NCBI GenBank assembly: GCA_963699545.1
Contig: CAVOUE010000005.1
Location: forward strand, 320,001 to 384,000
Direction of reading: 5' to 3'
Source: Nitrospirota bacterium
GTDB lineage: Bacteria; Nitrospirota; Thermodesulfovibrionia; Thermodesulfovibrionales; UBA9159
DNA: 64,000 nucleotides
Shown: positions 25,654-36,626 of the stretch, piece after piece
Layout of the letters: each line of letters opens with the position of its first letter
Numbering within the stretch: position 1 is the stretch's first letter
Position numbers and translations under genes: made by a program
Notes under the pieces: model-generated
Databases searched by the model: none
What the model was told of the DNA's origin: nothing
Seen by the model: only the letters and a program-made list of their open reading frames with translations

Positions 25654-26739
25654 ATGAGTAAGATCAAGGATGACACAGACAGTATCTGGACCAGTCTGGC
25701 GAAAAAGGGGGTAACCAGAAGGGACTTCGTCAAGTTCTGCACGGCCATGGCCGCCACCCTGGCCCTTCCCTCGAGCTTTGTCCCGAGGATCGTCGAAGCC
25801 CTCGAGAAGAAGCAGAAACCCTATGCGGTCTGGCTTGAGTTCCAGGATTGCTGCGGGGATTCCGAATCCATGCTTCGGGCAACGAAGCCGACCATCGCAG
25901 AGGTCGTTTTGGACGTCATCTCCCTTGAGTACCACGAGACCATCATGGCGGGTTCAGGAAAACAGGCGGAAAAGGCCCTCATGGACGTGGTCAAGAACCA
26001 GAAAGGCAAGTATATCGCCATCGTCGAGGGAGCGATCCCCATGAAGGACGGAGGGATTTACTGCACCATCGGCGGCAGATCCGCACTTGACATTGCCAAG
26101 GAAGTCTGCGGGAATGCGGCCATGACACTGGCCGTGGGATCATGCTCCAGCTGGGGAGGAATTGCCAGCGCAAAACCTAATCCCACAGGTGCGGTCGGAA
26201 TAGGGGCTGCGGTCCCCGGCATCACCTATGTGAACCTGCCCGGCTGCCCGATGAACGTCGAGAACGTGACTGCCACCGTGGTCCACTACCTCACGTTCGG
26301 CTCTCTGCCCGCCCTTGATGGCGAGCACCGTCCGCTTTTCGCCCATGGAAAGATCATTCATAATAATTGCGAGAGAAGGCCGCACTTTGATGCAGGCCAG
26401 TTTGTGAGGAAATGGGGCGACGAAGGGCACAGAAAAGGCTGGTGCCTCTATGAGATGGGCTGCAAGGGGCCCGAGGCGCACTTTAATTGCCCCACGATAC
26501 GGTGGAACGGAGGAACGAGTTGGCCTGTACAGGCAGGACATCCCTGCTTTGCATGTGCCAGCACCAACAACTGGGATGCCTTCGGACCTATTTACAGCAG
26601 GCTTGAGAACGTGCCGGGAGCCGGATATCAGACCACTGCCGACAAGATCGGGGCCACTGTTGCCGCAGTTGCAGCAGCCGGTGTGGCTGCGCATGCGGTG
26701 ATCCGTGCAGCAAAAGGGAAACCGGACAAAGAAGAGTAA
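25654..26739 (+). CDS. hyaA: Group 1 [NiFe]-hydrogenase small subunit (Tat-exported, C-terminal membrane anchor)
   Basis: TRRDFVK Tat motif; DCCGDSES, GSCSSWGG, PGCP, HNNC, CLYEMGCKGP, HPCFAC; terminal TM helix with His. Confidence 0.95.
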   Translation: MSKIKDDTDSIWTSLAKKGVTRRDFVKFCTAMAATLALPSSFVPRIVEALEKKQKPYAVWLEFQDCCGDSESMLRATKPTIAEVVLDVISLEYHETIMAGSGKQAEKALMDVVKNQKGKYIAIVEGAIPMKDGGIYCTIGGRSALDIAKEVCGNAAMTLAVGSCSSWGGIASAKPNPTGAVGIGAAVPGITYVNLPGCPMNVENVTATVVHYLTFGSLPALDGEHRPLFAHGKIIHNNCERRPHFDAGQFVRKWGDEGHRKGWCLYEMGCKGPEAHFNCPTIRWNGGTSWPVQAGHPCFACASTNNWDAFGPIYSRLENVPGAGYQTTADKIGATVAAVAAAGVAAHAVIRAAKGKPDKEE

Positions 26740-26768
26740 GAATAAAAACGATAGAAGGAGGCTAGAGC

Positions 26769-28478
26769 ATGGCAAAAATAGCGATTGATCCCATCACACG
26801 GATTGAAGGACACCTGAGGATCGAGGCACAGGTGGACGGCGGCAAGGTCACTGATGCATGGTCATCCGGCACCATGTGGCGAGGCATCGAGATCATTCTG
26901 AAAGGGAGGGATCCGAGGGAGTGCTGGGCGCTCACCTCGCGAATATGAGGGGTCTGAACAACGGTCCACGCACAGTGCTCCGTGAGAGCCGTGGAAAATG
27001 CCTTAGGGATTACGATAACCGATAACGCAAGGATCATCAGGAACATCATCAATGGTATTCAGTATGTTCAGGACCATGTAATACATTTCTATCACCTGCA
27101 CGCCCTTGACTGGGTCGATGTGGTCAGCGCCCTGAAGGCCGACCCCGCAAAGACAGCGGCCCTTGCCCAGTCCATTTCCGACTGGCCGAACTCTTCACCG
27201 ACTTACTTTAAGGCGGTCCACGGAAAGGTGAAGACGCTTGTAGAGAGCGGTCAGCTCGGCATCTTTGCCAGCGGATACTGGGGACATCCGGCATACAAGC
27301 TTCCGCCTGAGGCGAATCTCATGGCGGTTGCCCATTATCTGGAAGCCCTGGACTGGCAGCGTGATGTAATAAGGATGCAGGCGATGCTCGGCGCCAAGAA
27401 CCCCCACCCGCAGACGTGGCTGGTGGGTGGTATGGCCATCCCCATTGACCCCAATAGTCAGAATGCCATCAACGCAGGAAGCATCGCCCTCATGAAGGAC
27501 CTGGCGAAGAAGGCCCTTGCCTTTGTTGAGAAGGTCTATATCCCCGATCTCCTCGCGGTTGCGTCCTTCTATAAGGATTGGGCGGCGATCGGTGGCGGTG
27601 TGGGGAATTATCTCTCCTACGGCGAGTTCCAGAACGACAATGTGAGCAATACCACAAACGTCTGGCTTCCTGGTGGAGTCATCAGGAACAAGAACCTGGC
27701 CAAGGTCGAGCCCGTTGACCAGAAGCAGGTCACTGAAGACGTTGCACATGCCTGGTATAAATATGCGGACGGTGATGACAAGGCAAAGCATCCATGGGAC
27801 GGCGAGACCACCCCCAACTATACCGGTCCGAAACCGCCCTATGAATTCCTTGATACCAATAAAAAGTACACCTGGGTCAAGGGTATCCGGTACAACGGAA
27901 TGTCCACCGAGGTGGGGCCGCTTTCGAGGATGCTCATCGCGTACGCATCGGGACATAAGCGTGTCAAAGAAGTTGTCGGGCTTGTGCTCAGCAAATTGGG
28001 CGTCGGGCCCGCCGCATTGTTCTCTACCCTTGGCCGCACCGCTGCGAGGGGCATAGAGACCCTTGTGACCGCAGAGATGCTCCCGGTCTGGATCGATGAC
28101 CTGGCGGCCAAGATCAAGAGCGGAGATATTCGTATCCATAATAACGAGAAGTGGGACCCGTCCACCTGGCCGAAGGAGGCAAAAGGGTTCGGCTTCCACG
28201 AGGCACCCCGCGGTGCCCTTGGCCACTGGGTAGTGATAAAGGACGGTAAGGTCGCCAACTACCAGTGTGTCGTCCCGGGCGGGTGGAACTCTTCCCCCAG
28301 AGATGCAAAGGGTCAGAGGGGCCCGTACGAAGCAGCTCTTATGGACACCCCGATCAAGGACCCCAATAAGCCGCTGGAAGTCTTGAGGACGATCCATTCC
28401 TTCGACCCGTGCATGGCGTGTGCGATCCATGTAGTAGACACCAACATGGATGAGATCATAAAAGTCAGGGTGGTATAG
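26769..28478 (+). CDS. hyaB: Group 1 hydrogenase large subunit, 569 aa, with two in-frame TGA codons (codons 60 and 63, putative selenocysteines) at the L1 motif
   Basis: ATG 26769 after [21 protein letters not shown] and RI(TGA)GV(TGA)TTVH are in frame with ORF 26982-28478; L2 motif [11 protein letters not shown] plus a cleavable tail. Confidence 0.92.
26961..26995 (+). promoter_or_regulatory. Candidate bacterial SECIS element(s) immediately 3' of the two UGA codons
   Basis: TCCACG(26965-70) pairs with CGTGGA(26990-95); inner GCTC/GAGC stem with a CGUGA loop; alternative ACGGT/GCCGT stem. Folded by eye only. Confidence 0.5.
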
Positions 28479-28487
28479 GAGGCAGAC

Positions 28488-29130
28488 ATGTTAAAAAAGG
28501 TGTATGTCTGGGAGTTTCCTGTAAGGTTGACTCACTGGCTTAACTTCGTGACGATCCTGACGTTGGCAACCACCGGTTTTTACATCGGCGCTCCCTTTAT
28601 CCGGGCCATCAACGAGGACCAGTTGATCATGGCGCAATTCCGGTTCGTCCATTTCGTGGCTGCGTATGTCTTTGCGGTGAGCGTCCTGGTGAGGATCTAC
28701 TGGTGGTTTGCCGGTAACCGGTATTCACGCTGGAACCAGTTCTTGCCGGTGAGCTCTGAGCGGTGGGAGAGCTGTATCGAAACGACCAAGTTCTACTGTT
28801 TTGTCCGTCAGAAATTTCCTGACGTTGCGGGACATACCGGGATCGCGGGAATAACCTATTTCGTGATGTTCATGCTCTTCCTCACCGAGATCGTCACGGG
28901 GTTTGCGCTCTACTCACAGAGTCATGTGGGAAGCTTGTGGACGCGTGCTGGGAGGCTGGCTCTTTGTGATACTCAACCAGGGCGCGGTGCGGCTTATCCA
29001 CCACTGCATCATGTGGGTTATCGCTGTTTTCCTTATCCTCCATATCTACATCGGGTGGCACAATGACATGATAGAGAGGAACGGCCTTATGAGTTCGATC
29101 TTCAGCGGATACAAGTCTCTGAAGGAATAA
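28488..29130 (+). CDS. hyaC: Hydrogenase b-type cytochrome subunit, frameshift near 28945
   Basis: VWEFPVRLTHW, RFVHF, and RLIHH..LHIY in the second frame. Confidence 0.9.
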
Positions 29131-29137
29131 AGGGATA

Positions 29138-29635
29138 TTGACTACTACCGTCTTAGGTCTGGGCAATATCCTGTTACGCGACGAGGGAGTCGGGGTCCAT
29201 GCGGTAAACGCCATCAAGGAACGCTATGCGTTTCCTCCCGATGTGGAGGTCATTGATGGCGGGACACTGGGCCTCGACCTCCTTCCTCTTATCGAAAAAA
29301 GGGACAGGCTCCTCTTTGTGGATGCGGTGGACTTCGGGAAGGAACCCGGCCACGTGGGTGTCATCGATGATGATGCCATCCCCTCTACCCTCATGGCAAA
29401 AATGTCGGTCCACCACATCGGTCTCTCCGACGTGCTCTTTGCCGCAAAACTCCTGGACATAAAACCGGTAAAAGTGCGCCTTATCGGCATTCAGCCGAAG
29501 TCCCTTGAGGTTGGCCTTGATATGACGGAGTGCATCAGTGGTAAAATGGAAGTGATCATCGGCTTGATCCTCGAAACGTTGAAGGAGTGGAACATAGAAT
29601 GTGCCTCGCGGTCCCTTCAGAAATTGTCCGCATAA
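29138..29635 (+). CDS. hyaD: Hydrogenase maturation endopeptidase
   Basis: GLGNILLRDEGVG, DGGT, VDAV, SVHH. Confidence 0.92.
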   Translation: MTTTVLGLGNILLRDEGVGVHAVNAIKERYAFPPDVEVIDGGTLGLDLLPLIEKRDRLLFVDAVDFGKEPGHVGVIDDDAIPSTLMAKMSVHHIGLSDVLFAAKLLDIKPVKVRLIGIQPKSLEVGLDMTECISGKMEVIIGLILETLKEWNIECASRSLQKLSA

Positions 29636-30435: not shown

Positions 30436-30552
30436 GACAGCAAACCATCACACGTTTAACGTAGCCGGCCCCCGTTCTTCTCTCCAGTCAGTATGGTGTC
30501 CCGGGAATCAAAGTTGCTCCCTGAATGAAGAAGTTGCCTCACATTTTCGACA

Positions 30553-30581
30553 TTGACAAAAAAGCCATACTGTTTTACGAT
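30553..30581 (+). promoter_or_regulatory. Sigma70 promoter of the TA operon
   Basis: TTGACA-N17-TACGAT upstream of RBS AAGGAGG. Confidence 0.6.
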
Positions 30582-30611
30582 TGTATTATCGATAGGAGCG
30601 AAGGAGGACAA

Positions 30612-30818
30612 ATGGCAACGACCACGATATCTCCAAAATTTCAGGTAGTCATACCGAAAGAGGTCAGAAAGAAGCTCGATCTGAAATCCGGGCAAAAGAT
30701 GACGGTCATCACCAAGGGAGGCATCGTCTACTTCATCCCCGAGAAGCCCATAGAGGCGTTCAGAGGGTTTCTGAAAGGCATGGCTACGGGGAACGTCAGG
30801 GAGGACGAAGAACGCTGA
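30612..30818 (+). CDS. AbrB/MazE-family antitoxin
   Basis: ISPKFQVVIPKEVR; stop overlaps the toxin start. Confidence 0.9.
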   Translation: MATTTISPKFQVVIPKEVRKKLDLKSGQKMTVITKGGIVYFIPEKPIEAFRGFLKGMATGNVREDEER

Positions 30819-31210
30819 TGCTTCTCATCGATTCCTCCGGATGGATCGAGTTCTTCACCGATGGTCCTCTGGCAAGAGAATATGCAAAGCACCTGAAAGA
30901 TCCGGCAAGAATAATAACGCCCACAGTTGTTCTTTACGAGGTCTACAGGAAGATAAAGCGCGAAAAGACGGAAGAACAGGCCCTCCTGGCTGTTTCCTTC
31001 ATGAACAGGACATCAGTGATCGACCTCAGCGAAAGCATTGCGCTCCTTGCTGCTGACCTCAGTATTCAAAACTCGCTGCCGATGGCCGACGCAATGGTAT
31101 ATGCCACCGCCATGGAAAACAATTGCAGCGTTGTCACCAGTGATGAACATTTCAAGAAGCTTGGTAAGGTAATCTTCGTTCTCCTGAGAATTCGCCATTG
31201 GGGCGGCTGA
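30818..31210 (+). CDS. vapC: PIN-domain VapC toxin
   Basis: IDSSGWIE, YEVY, MADA, VTSDEHF. Confidence 0.9.
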   Translation: MLLIDSSGWIEFFTDGPLAREYAKHLKDPARIITPTVVLYEVYRKIKREKTEEQALLAVSFMNRTSVIDLSESIALLAADLSIQNSLPMADAMVYATAMENNCSVVTSDEHFKKLGKVIFVLLRIRHWGG

Positions 31211-36027: not shown

Positions 36028-36200
36028 GGGTCAAGGGTCGAGTGGTTCTTCGATCCTGTTAACACGTTGCCGTTCTGTTGTTTTCTCTTGAACCCTTAAA
36101 TCCTCTTCACCCTGAACCCCTTTTTCTTGTTGCACTTTCTCCTTGCCCAAATACCATGATTTCTGGTATAACAAAAGTAGGTTTAGATTGAGGGCAGTTT

Positions 36201-36381
36201 GCCTGCCCTGTTTGTGATGGGTGAAAAAAGTTGATCCGGCAAATTAGATCTTTTGGGAGTCAGAGTAAGGGGTACGGTGCGCATGCCGGGCATTCATTTG
36301 CCTGGAAGCCTGAAGTCTCCTTCAAGACACCCACCTATACACTAGGCGGATCTGATTATTCACCTGCACGGCAGGGCGGGT
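36201..36381 (+). ncRNA. ssrS: 6S RNA
   Basis: About 180 nt; terminal stem CCTGCCCTG/CAGGGCGGG, long complementarity, central bubble; upstream of rny; promoter TTGCCC-N18-TATAAC at 36143-36172. Confidence 0.75.
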
Positions 36382-36626
36382 TTATTTTGCGGGTTCTTTT
36401 GATCGCGTTGCTTTTTGTGAGGAATTTAAATAAAAAAATAGAGGAATCTGGCACATTGCCTCCCTTCATGAACGCTGACACCGCTTCAGGCAGCCGGAAA
36501 GACCGCATTGTCCCGGAAGATTCCTTTAGGCTACAGAGTCGTATATCTCTCTTGCCATCCTTGCAATAGCATAACAGACACAGTAAGCCCGCACTGCCCT
36601 CATCGGCACTATACTACGAAAGGGGG

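Follow-up and report, generated by a model that had tools for sequence, protein, structure and literature searches.

The hydrogenase operon and its reading frame

The DNA analysed here, called the window below, is a stretch of 64,000 nucleotides from a Nitrospirota bacterium (G000:C5:320001-384000); G000 is an assembly of 13 contigs that is 86.94% complete. The window carries the operon of a [NiFe] hydrogenase, whose large-subunit gene contains two in-frame UGA codons (UGA 1 and UGA 2) at the two cysteines of the N-terminal nickel motif, L1. Both codons are probably read as selenocysteine (Sec). Near matches of this gene are titled Nitrospirota or Thermodesulfovibrionales. The features are collected in Table 1.

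Between its start and its stop codon the frame is interrupted solely by the two TGA triplets. The sequence-only reading of this DNA had reported such a frame, open save for two stops on the L1 cysteine pair, and had noted that the caller of open reading frames (ORFs) missed the first 71 codons. Both statements agree with our rereading: with TGA translated as Cys, the product matches Pfam family PF00374 over model positions 1-508 of 508 (780 bits), and the mechanical ORF list begins the large subunit at GTG 26982 (498 amino acids), 71 codons late. The two stops coincide with the two Cys of the motif RxCGxCxxxH, which becomes RIUGVUTTVH if both UGAs are Sec. The first of these positions is a terminal Ni ligand and the second bridges Ni and Fe (PMC13582414; this and the other articles cited by PMC number are drawn on in excerpt). 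The four Ni-ligand positions, in RxCGxCxxxH and in the C-terminal DPCxxCxxH, are all occupied only when each UGA yields Cys or Sec.

The operon is complete, with a small subunit for twin-arginine translocation (TAT), the large subunit, a b-type cytochrome and a C-terminal protease. As had been stated from the letters, the rest of the large-subunit gene and the partner genes are intact, with Pfam or NCBIfam matches for all genes of the operon; TIGR00391, TIGR01409 and TIGR00140 score above their own cut-offs.

Table 1. Features of the hydrogenase locus in window coordinates
Feature	Position	Strand	Evidence and remarks
[NiFe] hydrogenase large subunit, 569 codons + stop, two in-frame UGA	26769..28478	+	frame reading, Pfam; start ATG 26769-26771, stop TAA 28476-28478
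UGA 1, first Cys of RxCGxC (terminal Ni ligand)	26946..26948	+	
UGA 2, second Cys of RxCGxC (Ni-Fe bridging ligand)	26955..26957	+	
SECIS-like hairpin	26965..26995	+	outer stem UCCACG/CGUGGA; inner stem GCUC (26977-26980)/GAGC (26986-26989); apical loop CGUGA (26981-26985)
C-terminal nickel motif DPCMACAIH	28404..28430	+	both positions Cys; a 15-residue tail for the maturation protease follows
[NiFe] hydrogenase small subunit with twin-arginine signal	25654..26739	+	PF01058, PF14720, TIGR00391 (430 bits), TIGR01409
b-type cytochrome subunit, membrane anchor and quinone link	28488..29066	+	PF01292; TIGR02125 116.8 bits, cut-off 121.5
HyaD/HybD-type hydrogenase maturation endopeptidase	29138..29635	+	PF01750; TIGR00140 154.7 bits

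The small subunit differs from solved enzymes in its first proximal-cluster motif, which is DCCGDSES here and ECTGCTES there, so that C-x-G-D or C-x-G-N stands in place of C-x-G-C. Among rows in which the motif was found, the residue is Asp in most Nitrospirota with both UGAs, Asn in Acidobacteriota and Roseiflexus, and Cys in Anaerolineae; Asp or Asn is not restricted to genes of the Sec type. The small subunit may have a proximal Fe-S cluster ligated by Asp or Asn.

Conservation of the UGA pair and of the downstream hairpin

It is useful to follow both codons across the relatives of this gene. We read 102 orthologous rows and designate each by the state of the first and second L1 position, U for TGA and C for a Cys codon. 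Both TGAs are present in 46 of them (UU), from Nitrospirota, Chloroflexota, Methylomirabilota and Thermodesulfobacteriota; 52 have Cys at both positions (CC), the classical Sec/Cys pairing of homologs, four are CU and none is UC. In 25 of 41 related genomes (G000 included) there is an ortholog of 70-95% identity with exactly two in-frame TGAs. Alternation of TGA with TGC or TGT at these sites was sought in the relatives and is found: the motif read in 20 of their loci, the window's own among them, is RIUGVUTTVH in 18 cases and RFCGVCVTVH in two, and 80 named loci from a species-representative genome collection gave 81 motif rows, with UU in 28, CU in four, CC in 49 and UC in none. Chance would not produce anything like this agreement.

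The hosts of UU genes are Nitrospirota, Chloroflexota (Anaerolineae, Thermoflexus), one Methylomirabilia metagenome-assembled genome (MAG), and two MAGs titled Proteobacteria and Thermodesulfobacteriota; complete genomes such as G023 are among the carriers. When 301 genomes of the same order were sampled, 180 had a strong match, and about 95 had two TGAs among the matches listed; this is a hand count of TGA codons irrespective of position, with 44 further matches outside the list. UU is the commonest form of this enzyme in its order. The same draw held about 17 further rows with one TGA, likewise counted by number and not by position, at 69-73% identity. A distant Group 1 clade of this order (L164-L167, from genomes G024, G019, G035 and G031; 52-54% identical) has RFCGVUTTVH at L1 and DPCLAC at the C-terminus.

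The distinct Sec-type sequences, 47 in number, form alignment A1. UGA 2 is TGA in all 47, while UGA 1 is TGA in 43 and TGC or TGT in the remaining four. The Gly and Val codons between the TGAs vary at the third base (GGG/GGC/GGU/GGA and GUC/GUU/GUG). The C-terminal DPCxxC is kept in all Sec-type genes in which this motif was found; L098 gave no motif.

Public protein sequences present another picture of these genes. The best 120 full-length proteins over residues 1-200 are all CC, the closest being 87% identical, and among them there is no product that reads through the UU genes of 90-95% identity. An exact public match exists solely for a CC locus (L068 = P0092). One NCBI-sourced protein of 569 amino acids, P0005, is CC at L1, yet its five nearest genomic relatives (91-95%) all have two TGAs; either an annotation that reads through the TGAs or a very recent replacement of Sec by Cys could explain this.

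A quick maximum-likelihood tree of the 102 large subunits, unrooted and with the two L1 sites masked as X, needs at least nine changes of L1 state, against about 37 with shuffled labels. One clade of 45 rows, mostly Nitrospirota, comprises 38 UU, five CC and two CU; the Chloroflexota clade has six UU, two CU and one CC, and two UU genes stand alone next to CC sisters. A CC paralog clade (L034, L035, L048, L064), in which the hairpin codons described below have been lost too, is nested inside the UU clade and is present as a second copy in G003.

Downstream of UGA 2 lies a hairpin that resembles a Sec insertion sequence (SECIS). It lies 19 nt after UGA 2, covers the codons for (C/S/A)-S-V-R-A-V, and can form at the same place in all Sec-type genes. 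In the window, folding of the 45 nt that follow UGA 2 gives it as the structure of lowest energy (-11.5 kcal/mol); its apical loop lies 32 nt from UGA 1 and 23 nt from UGA 2. The published model of the bacterial SECIS (bSECIS) has a loop of 3-9 nt, an upper stem of 4-16 bp, a UGA-to-loop distance of 16-37 nt and a minimum free energy (MFE) of -7.5 or lower, with G in the first two loop positions, mostly G followed by G or U (PMC13188914). The window hairpin agrees with all four rules of this model for both UGAs, having a 5-nt loop, a 4-bp upper stem above a 6-bp lower stem, and G-U at loop positions 2-3.

The alignment gives further support to this structure. In A1 the 7-pair helix is paired in 75.7% of cells, compared with 70.9% in shuffles, none of which reached this value (0/500); the covariation score is 0.157 against 0.086 (0/500), and every slid register scores lower. 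Two-sided changes occur at pair 34-48 (AU 11, GC 7, UA 6), pair 35-47 (GC 28, CG 7) and pair 36-46 (CG 42, UA 4), and the loop bases G40-U41-G42 are invariant across A1. In Chloroflexota, paired codon changes alter the protein (Ala to Ser or Gly) while the pairing persists. As a control we took 50 of the 52 CC rows, excluding the distant second hydrogenases of L068 and L087; these Cys-type homologs pair in 50.3% of the same-column cells, no better than shuffles (128/500). The hairpin is alike in CU and UU genes, and there are CxxU genes but no UxxC genes. This suits a history in which Sec appeared at the bridging position before the terminal one, which later came to use the same SECIS; the unrooted tree gives no direction.

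Two variations of the hairpin region were also observed. In four Chloroflexota UU genes (L066, L069, L073, L076) an extra 6-bp hairpin, GACGGU GCAU GCCGUC, lies between UGA 2 and the SECIS-like hairpin; it starts 11 nt after UGA 1, abuts the latter, and is weak or absent in Nitrospirota genes. The Cys-type genes L094, L068 and L096, which stand beside Sec-type clades, retain part or all of the SECIS-like hairpin (for example CGCCUC GGUGA GGGCG in L094), and these may be fossil SECIS elements left after a change from Sec to Cys.

Decoding of the two codons

The Sec machinery, which we sought in the genome as a whole, is present for the most part. There is one copy of tRNA-Sec with UCA anticodon, discriminator G and a long variable arm (ARAGORN type SeC; Rfam 72.9 bits), selA is intact (607 bits), and selB is present (302 bits) in two frames that meet near C3:319116-319123; selD was not among the genes recovered. 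A formate dehydrogenase gene with one TGA (1546 bits) lies in the same genome, and therefore Sec is used there. Global reassignment of UGA was considered and rejected: TGA ends 750 of 1438 stop-to-stop frames of at least 300 codons and is the commonest terminator of long frames, in line with the exclusion of a changed code made earlier from the window. ARAGORN also placed a tRNA whose type it left undetermined, with the four-base anticodon tttg, at G000:C9:215527-215602 on the minus strand.

Taken together, we consider it likely that this is a working gene for a Group 1 uptake hydrogenase in which UGA specifies both L1 cysteine positions and one SECIS directs Sec to them. The product would be the catalytic subunit of a periplasmic, membrane-bound, cytochrome-b-linked [NiFe] uptake hydrogenase. 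UGA 1 would supply Sec as terminal Ni ligand and UGA 2 the Sec that bridges Ni and Fe, while the C-terminal pair stays Cys. The single intragenic hairpin would act as the SECIS: SelB with Sec-tRNA(Sec) would bind it and serve UGA 1 first and then UGA 2, three codons on. From sequence comparison we infer, with good though not full confidence, that the residue is Sec and not Cys and that both codons depend on a single hairpin; any effect on catalysis would be a matter of inference too. The sequence-only reading had already proposed an intact gene for a respiratory hydrogenase with recoded L1 UGAs, and its proposal gains support from the TGAs of orthologs, the co-varying hairpin and the Sec machinery.

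Several observations weigh on the other side. For the 55 nt of the window itself, folding shows no advantage over shuffles (z -0.44; 64/200 fold as well), and the MFE fold differs from the SECIS-like hairpin. RNAalifold retains three consensus pairs only. In about a quarter of the Sec-type sequences, the 12 of ACCGCCUCGGUGAGAGCGGU type, the hairpin forms only if the register is shifted, which gives a GGU loop and leaves an A bulged. UU and CC genes have similar mean MFE (-12.0, n=43, and -12.6, n=52, respectively). Fold energy is thus uninformative, and the case for a SECIS is made by the hairpin's place, the constancy of its loop bases and the compensating changes in its stem, rather than by its stability. 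In the genome, selB is split across two frames and the break could be real, and neither the family model nor the SelD of a relative found selD in the 86.94% complete assembly. In the numbering of Escherichia coli hydrogenase 1 (Hyd-1) the natural enzyme corresponds to C76U plus C79U, and the engineered single variants C76U and C79U of Hyd-1 keep 3% and 13% of native activity and are nearly inactive at 10% O2 (PMC8020662). Finally, the excerpted Candidatus Sulfobium paper detected no peptides of that organism's hydrogenase in a metaproteome (PMC5812927).

The gaps in the machinery can be compared with the state of the assembly and with the relatives. Besides selB (G000:C3:318143-319991), the assembly has split genes for EF-Tu (tuf, G000:C12:46281-47161) and for a second formate dehydrogenase (fdh, G000:C3:431250-434420). 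We read the break in selB as an assembly indel because tuf, which lies in different frames, and the second fdh are also in pieces; indel errors are typical of long-read assemblies, and genes that look broken in this one should be judged with that in mind. The selD gene, itself with one TGA, is present in ten of ten relatives checked, including both genomes of the same genus.

If both codons are read through, which amino acid is inserted? The foremost rival explanation, unlikely in our judgement yet to be taken seriously, holds that both UGAs are recoded as Cys by a selC*-type tRNA-Cys, charged by cysteinyl-tRNA synthetase (CysRS) and delivered by SelB at the same SECIS, either always or under selenium scarcity. 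The mature enzyme would then be an ordinary all-Cys [NiFe] hydrogenase or a mixture. Such tRNAs, of selC* or tRNA-ReC type, have a Sec-like shape and discriminator U; the criterion given for tRNA-ReC is a length of at least 80 nt, a UCA or GCA anticodon and discriminator U (PMC13582414). They can put Cys at a SECIS-dependent UGA according to PMC13582414 and PMC5389517, selC* has been published for Thermodesulfovibrio and Nitrospirae (PMC5389517), and tRNA-ReC is enriched in genomes with UXXU enzymes of Group 4 (PMC13582414).

The complete relatives G020 and G026 have, besides tRNA-Sec, a tRNA of about 90-97 nt with GCA anticodon and a long variable arm, whose discriminator is U where CCA is encoded. 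BLAST with the G020 tRNA matched 22 of 41 genomes, among them 15 of the 25 UU genomes and both same-genus genomes, and this too counts against Sec at both sites. Of the 12 loci fetched, ARAGORN identified 11 as tRNA-Cys(GCA), about 90-97 nt long; the check covered the stronger matches.

The remaining evidence points the other way. ARAGORN, Rfam and BLAST all failed to find a selC*-type tRNA in G000, and contig C7, whose syntenic stretch contains no N, has none at that place. Ten of the 25 UU genomes gave no match, including G013, G022 and G037 (each 100% complete) and G032 (99%), and matches are similarly frequent where no UU gene exists (7 of 16 genomes). The checked tRNAs all have GCA, cognate for UGC and UGU, and not UCA. 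Moreover, a Cys product could be had from TGC or TGT with no SECIS at all, whereas selection maintains both the TGAs and the hairpin. The clearest case is G013, of the same family, whose UU gene is 90% identical to that of the window: it has tRNA-Sec and a Sec-type selD, and neither BLAST nor Rfam found a selC*-type tRNA, nothing else Sec-like scoring above the Rfam cut-off. Sec-tRNA(Sec) is therefore the only evident decoder there. For this reason we consider Sec at both positions probable and Cys, whether constant or conditional, unlikely. The earlier suggestion that a special tRNA reads UGA as Cys stands as a real rival in so far as selC* is common in the order, but none was found in this genome.

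Many members of the lineage carry both tRNA-Sec and a SelB-compatible selC* tRNA-Cys. Dual coding, in which the same UGA-UGA-SECIS cassette would yield a two-selenium site when selenium is at hand and an all-sulfur site when it is not, seems to us rather improbable on present grounds. A selC*-type tRNA-Cys (GCA, about 95 nt) was also seen about 0.9 kb 3′ of the Cys-type paralog, at L035:3652-3745, L048:8568-8663 and G003:C8:3433-3526; ARAGORN found none in the scanned Sec-type loci, with flanks of up to 6 kb, nor in L034. The Cys-type enzyme and the Cys-recoding tRNA may be linked, and in these three genomes they could form a back-up module for selenium starvation.

A still less probable alternative is that only UGA 2, at the bridging position, is Sec, while UGA 1 is passed by near-cognate read-through, is read as Cys or is decoded inefficiently, giving a CxxU-like or mixed product. 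CxxU occurs without UxxC (four CU and no UC among the 102 rows), and a separate CXXU clade exists in the same order; the same hairpin is found in CU and UU genes, and the 32 nt between UGA 1 and the loop come close to the upper limit of the permitted 16-37 nt. That spacing is nevertheless inside the published range, and UGA 1 is kept in all 46 UU genes of several phyla, although a single substitution would turn it into a Cys codon. Apart from the extra 6-bp hairpin of some Chloroflexota genes, there was no sign of a second decoding signal.

A pseudogene, or TGAs that are assembly errors, is hardly credible and was rejected: selB, tuf and the second fdh do have frame breaks in this assembly, but such defects are indels, whereas the L1 TGAs are two substitutions at catalytic codons, shared by orthologs in dozens of independent assemblies, in a frame otherwise intact and 70-95% identical to those orthologs, with intact partner genes. 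The same argument from indels had been made in the sequence-only reading and is strengthened by these assemblies. Of the words sampled from 26400-28500, at most 7% occur in any one public sequencing run. Contigs of four runs were placed on the window at 80% likeness. L1 is spanned by three that stem from RNA libraries of two studies: X1 record 1 (26744-27217), X9 record 25 (26400-27583) and X21 record 17 (26416-27031); they come from relatives and are roughly 89-94% alike to the window. The 40 differences listed include none at the TGA positions, with 379 more outside the list, and these contigs prove neither the TGAs nor transcription.

Elsewhere in the window, a MazE-like antitoxin and PIN-domain toxin pair (30525-31210, plus strand) lies just 3′ of the hydrogenase operon, and a 6S RNA (Rfam RF00013, 84.9 bits) is at 36197-36386, plus strand.

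Class of the enzyme and comparison with known systems

The nearest solved structure is the membrane-bound enzyme of Allochromatium vinosum (3MYR chain B, 720 bits, residues 3-554 aligned), followed by the Hyd-1-type enzymes of Salmonella and E. coli, while classical [NiFeSe] structures score about 300 bits against the large subunit. The HysA model NF045518 gives 393.5 with a cut-off of 780 and NF033181 gives 544.3 with a cut-off of 600; NuoD- and FpoD-type models reach only 22-37 bits. Judged by sequence comparison, the enzyme is a Group 1 uptake hydrogenase outside the [NiFeSe] subgroup 1a. For HydDB subgroup 1f the support is the depositor's name of one homolog, 'hydrogenase, group If', together with the mix of taxa among Cys-type relatives.

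[NiFeSe] hydrogenases are prized for high activity and oxygen resilience, and to our knowledge all characterised ones have a single selenium, at the C-terminal terminal ligand. Group 1 is a class amenable to purification, crystallisation and protein film electrochemistry. If our reading is true, this would be, even without a selenium-dependent switch, the first natural Group 1 hydrogenase with selenium at both the terminal and the bridging ligand, made from two UGAs with one SECIS. A natural selenium at the other terminal ligand and at the Ni-Fe bridge would directly test the chalcogen swap position by position, for which the existing E. coli Hyd-1 variants with one Sec each offer a comparison. 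Those variants have a lower apparent KM for H2 (PMC8020662). By analogy, single Sec swaps suggest a higher affinity for H2 at the cost of O2 tolerance, and a strict anaerobe living at low H2 could gain from such affinity.

The gene also offers a natural case for asking whether one bacterial SECIS serves two UGAs nine bases apart. Since gene callers cut such genes at the TGAs, surveys of sulfate-reducing Nitrospirota and of Anaerolineae from sediments, soils and groundwater probably miss some of these enzymes or record them as truncated.

The literature that we searched, with most subscription journals and supplements outside its scope, gave no description of a Group 1 UXXU hydrogenase. The Candidatus Sulfobium paper calls its enzyme a membrane-bound [NiFeSe] hydrogenase, and does not use the word selenocysteine (PMC5812927); a 2026 review lists only UxxC for hydrogenase catalytic subunits (PMC13188914). 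In a paper of September 2026 (Front Microbiol, PMC13582414) the N-terminal Sec forms of Group 4 comprise 47 sequences from nine phyla, about 0.2% of the group, and UXXC and UXXU are called previously unrecognised. The same source places Sec of Groups 1 and 3 at the C-terminus, the exceptions being three sequences with N-terminal CXXU, two of Group 1 and one of Group 3 (Baltazar 2011). Measured against the literature searched, the UxxU form of Group 1 is new, and N-terminal UXXU was already published for Group 4 in 2026. To speak of a candidate new [NiFeSe] class, as the sequence-only reading did, is thus an overstatement, both because of the Group 4 UXXU enzymes and because of the two Group 1 CXXU sequences.

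How does the enzyme compare with the systems that resemble it? Among these are the Cys-type, cytochrome-b-linked Group 1 enzymes of Geobacteraceae, Acidobacteriota and Roseiflexus. These orthologs are 65-70% identical and have the same motifs, with Cys at both L1 positions and no conserved hairpin. The canonical [NiFeSe] enzymes of Group 1a (HysAB of Desulfovibrio vulgaris Hildenborough, 5JSU; Desulfomicrobium baculatum, 1CC1) are likewise periplasmic Group 1 enzymes with Sec as a Ni ligand. They are made by SelB/SECIS recoding, which in our case is proposed. However, they have one Sec, a terminal ligand at the first position of the C-terminal DPUxxC, whereas here DPCMAC is combined with an N-terminal UxxU. 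The Group 1 CXXU sequences of Baltazar 2011 (via PMC13582414) share Sec at the bridging N-terminal position and differ in having one Sec only.

The engineered C76U and C79U enzymes of E. coli Hyd-1 (PMC8020662) also belong to Group 1 and have Sec at the same two ligand positions. They are single amber-suppression substitutions in an O2-tolerant enzyme, whereas here both would be natural, present at once and of long evolutionary history. A similar arrangement is that of the Group 4 UXXU, CXXU and UXXC [NiFeSe] enzymes (PMC13582414), with Sec codons in the N-terminal CXXC and Cys in the C-terminal motif. In the UXXU form the two UGAs are also three codons apart, one downstream SECIS is proposed for both, and tRNA-ReC co-occurs in many genomes. 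UXXC, present in Group 4, has no counterpart among the 102 rows here. The Group 4 enzymes are energy-converting, cytoplasm-facing and multisubunit, whereas the enzyme encoded in the window is a Group 1 uptake hydrogenase, predicted to be periplasmic, with a TAT-exported small subunit and a cytochrome b.

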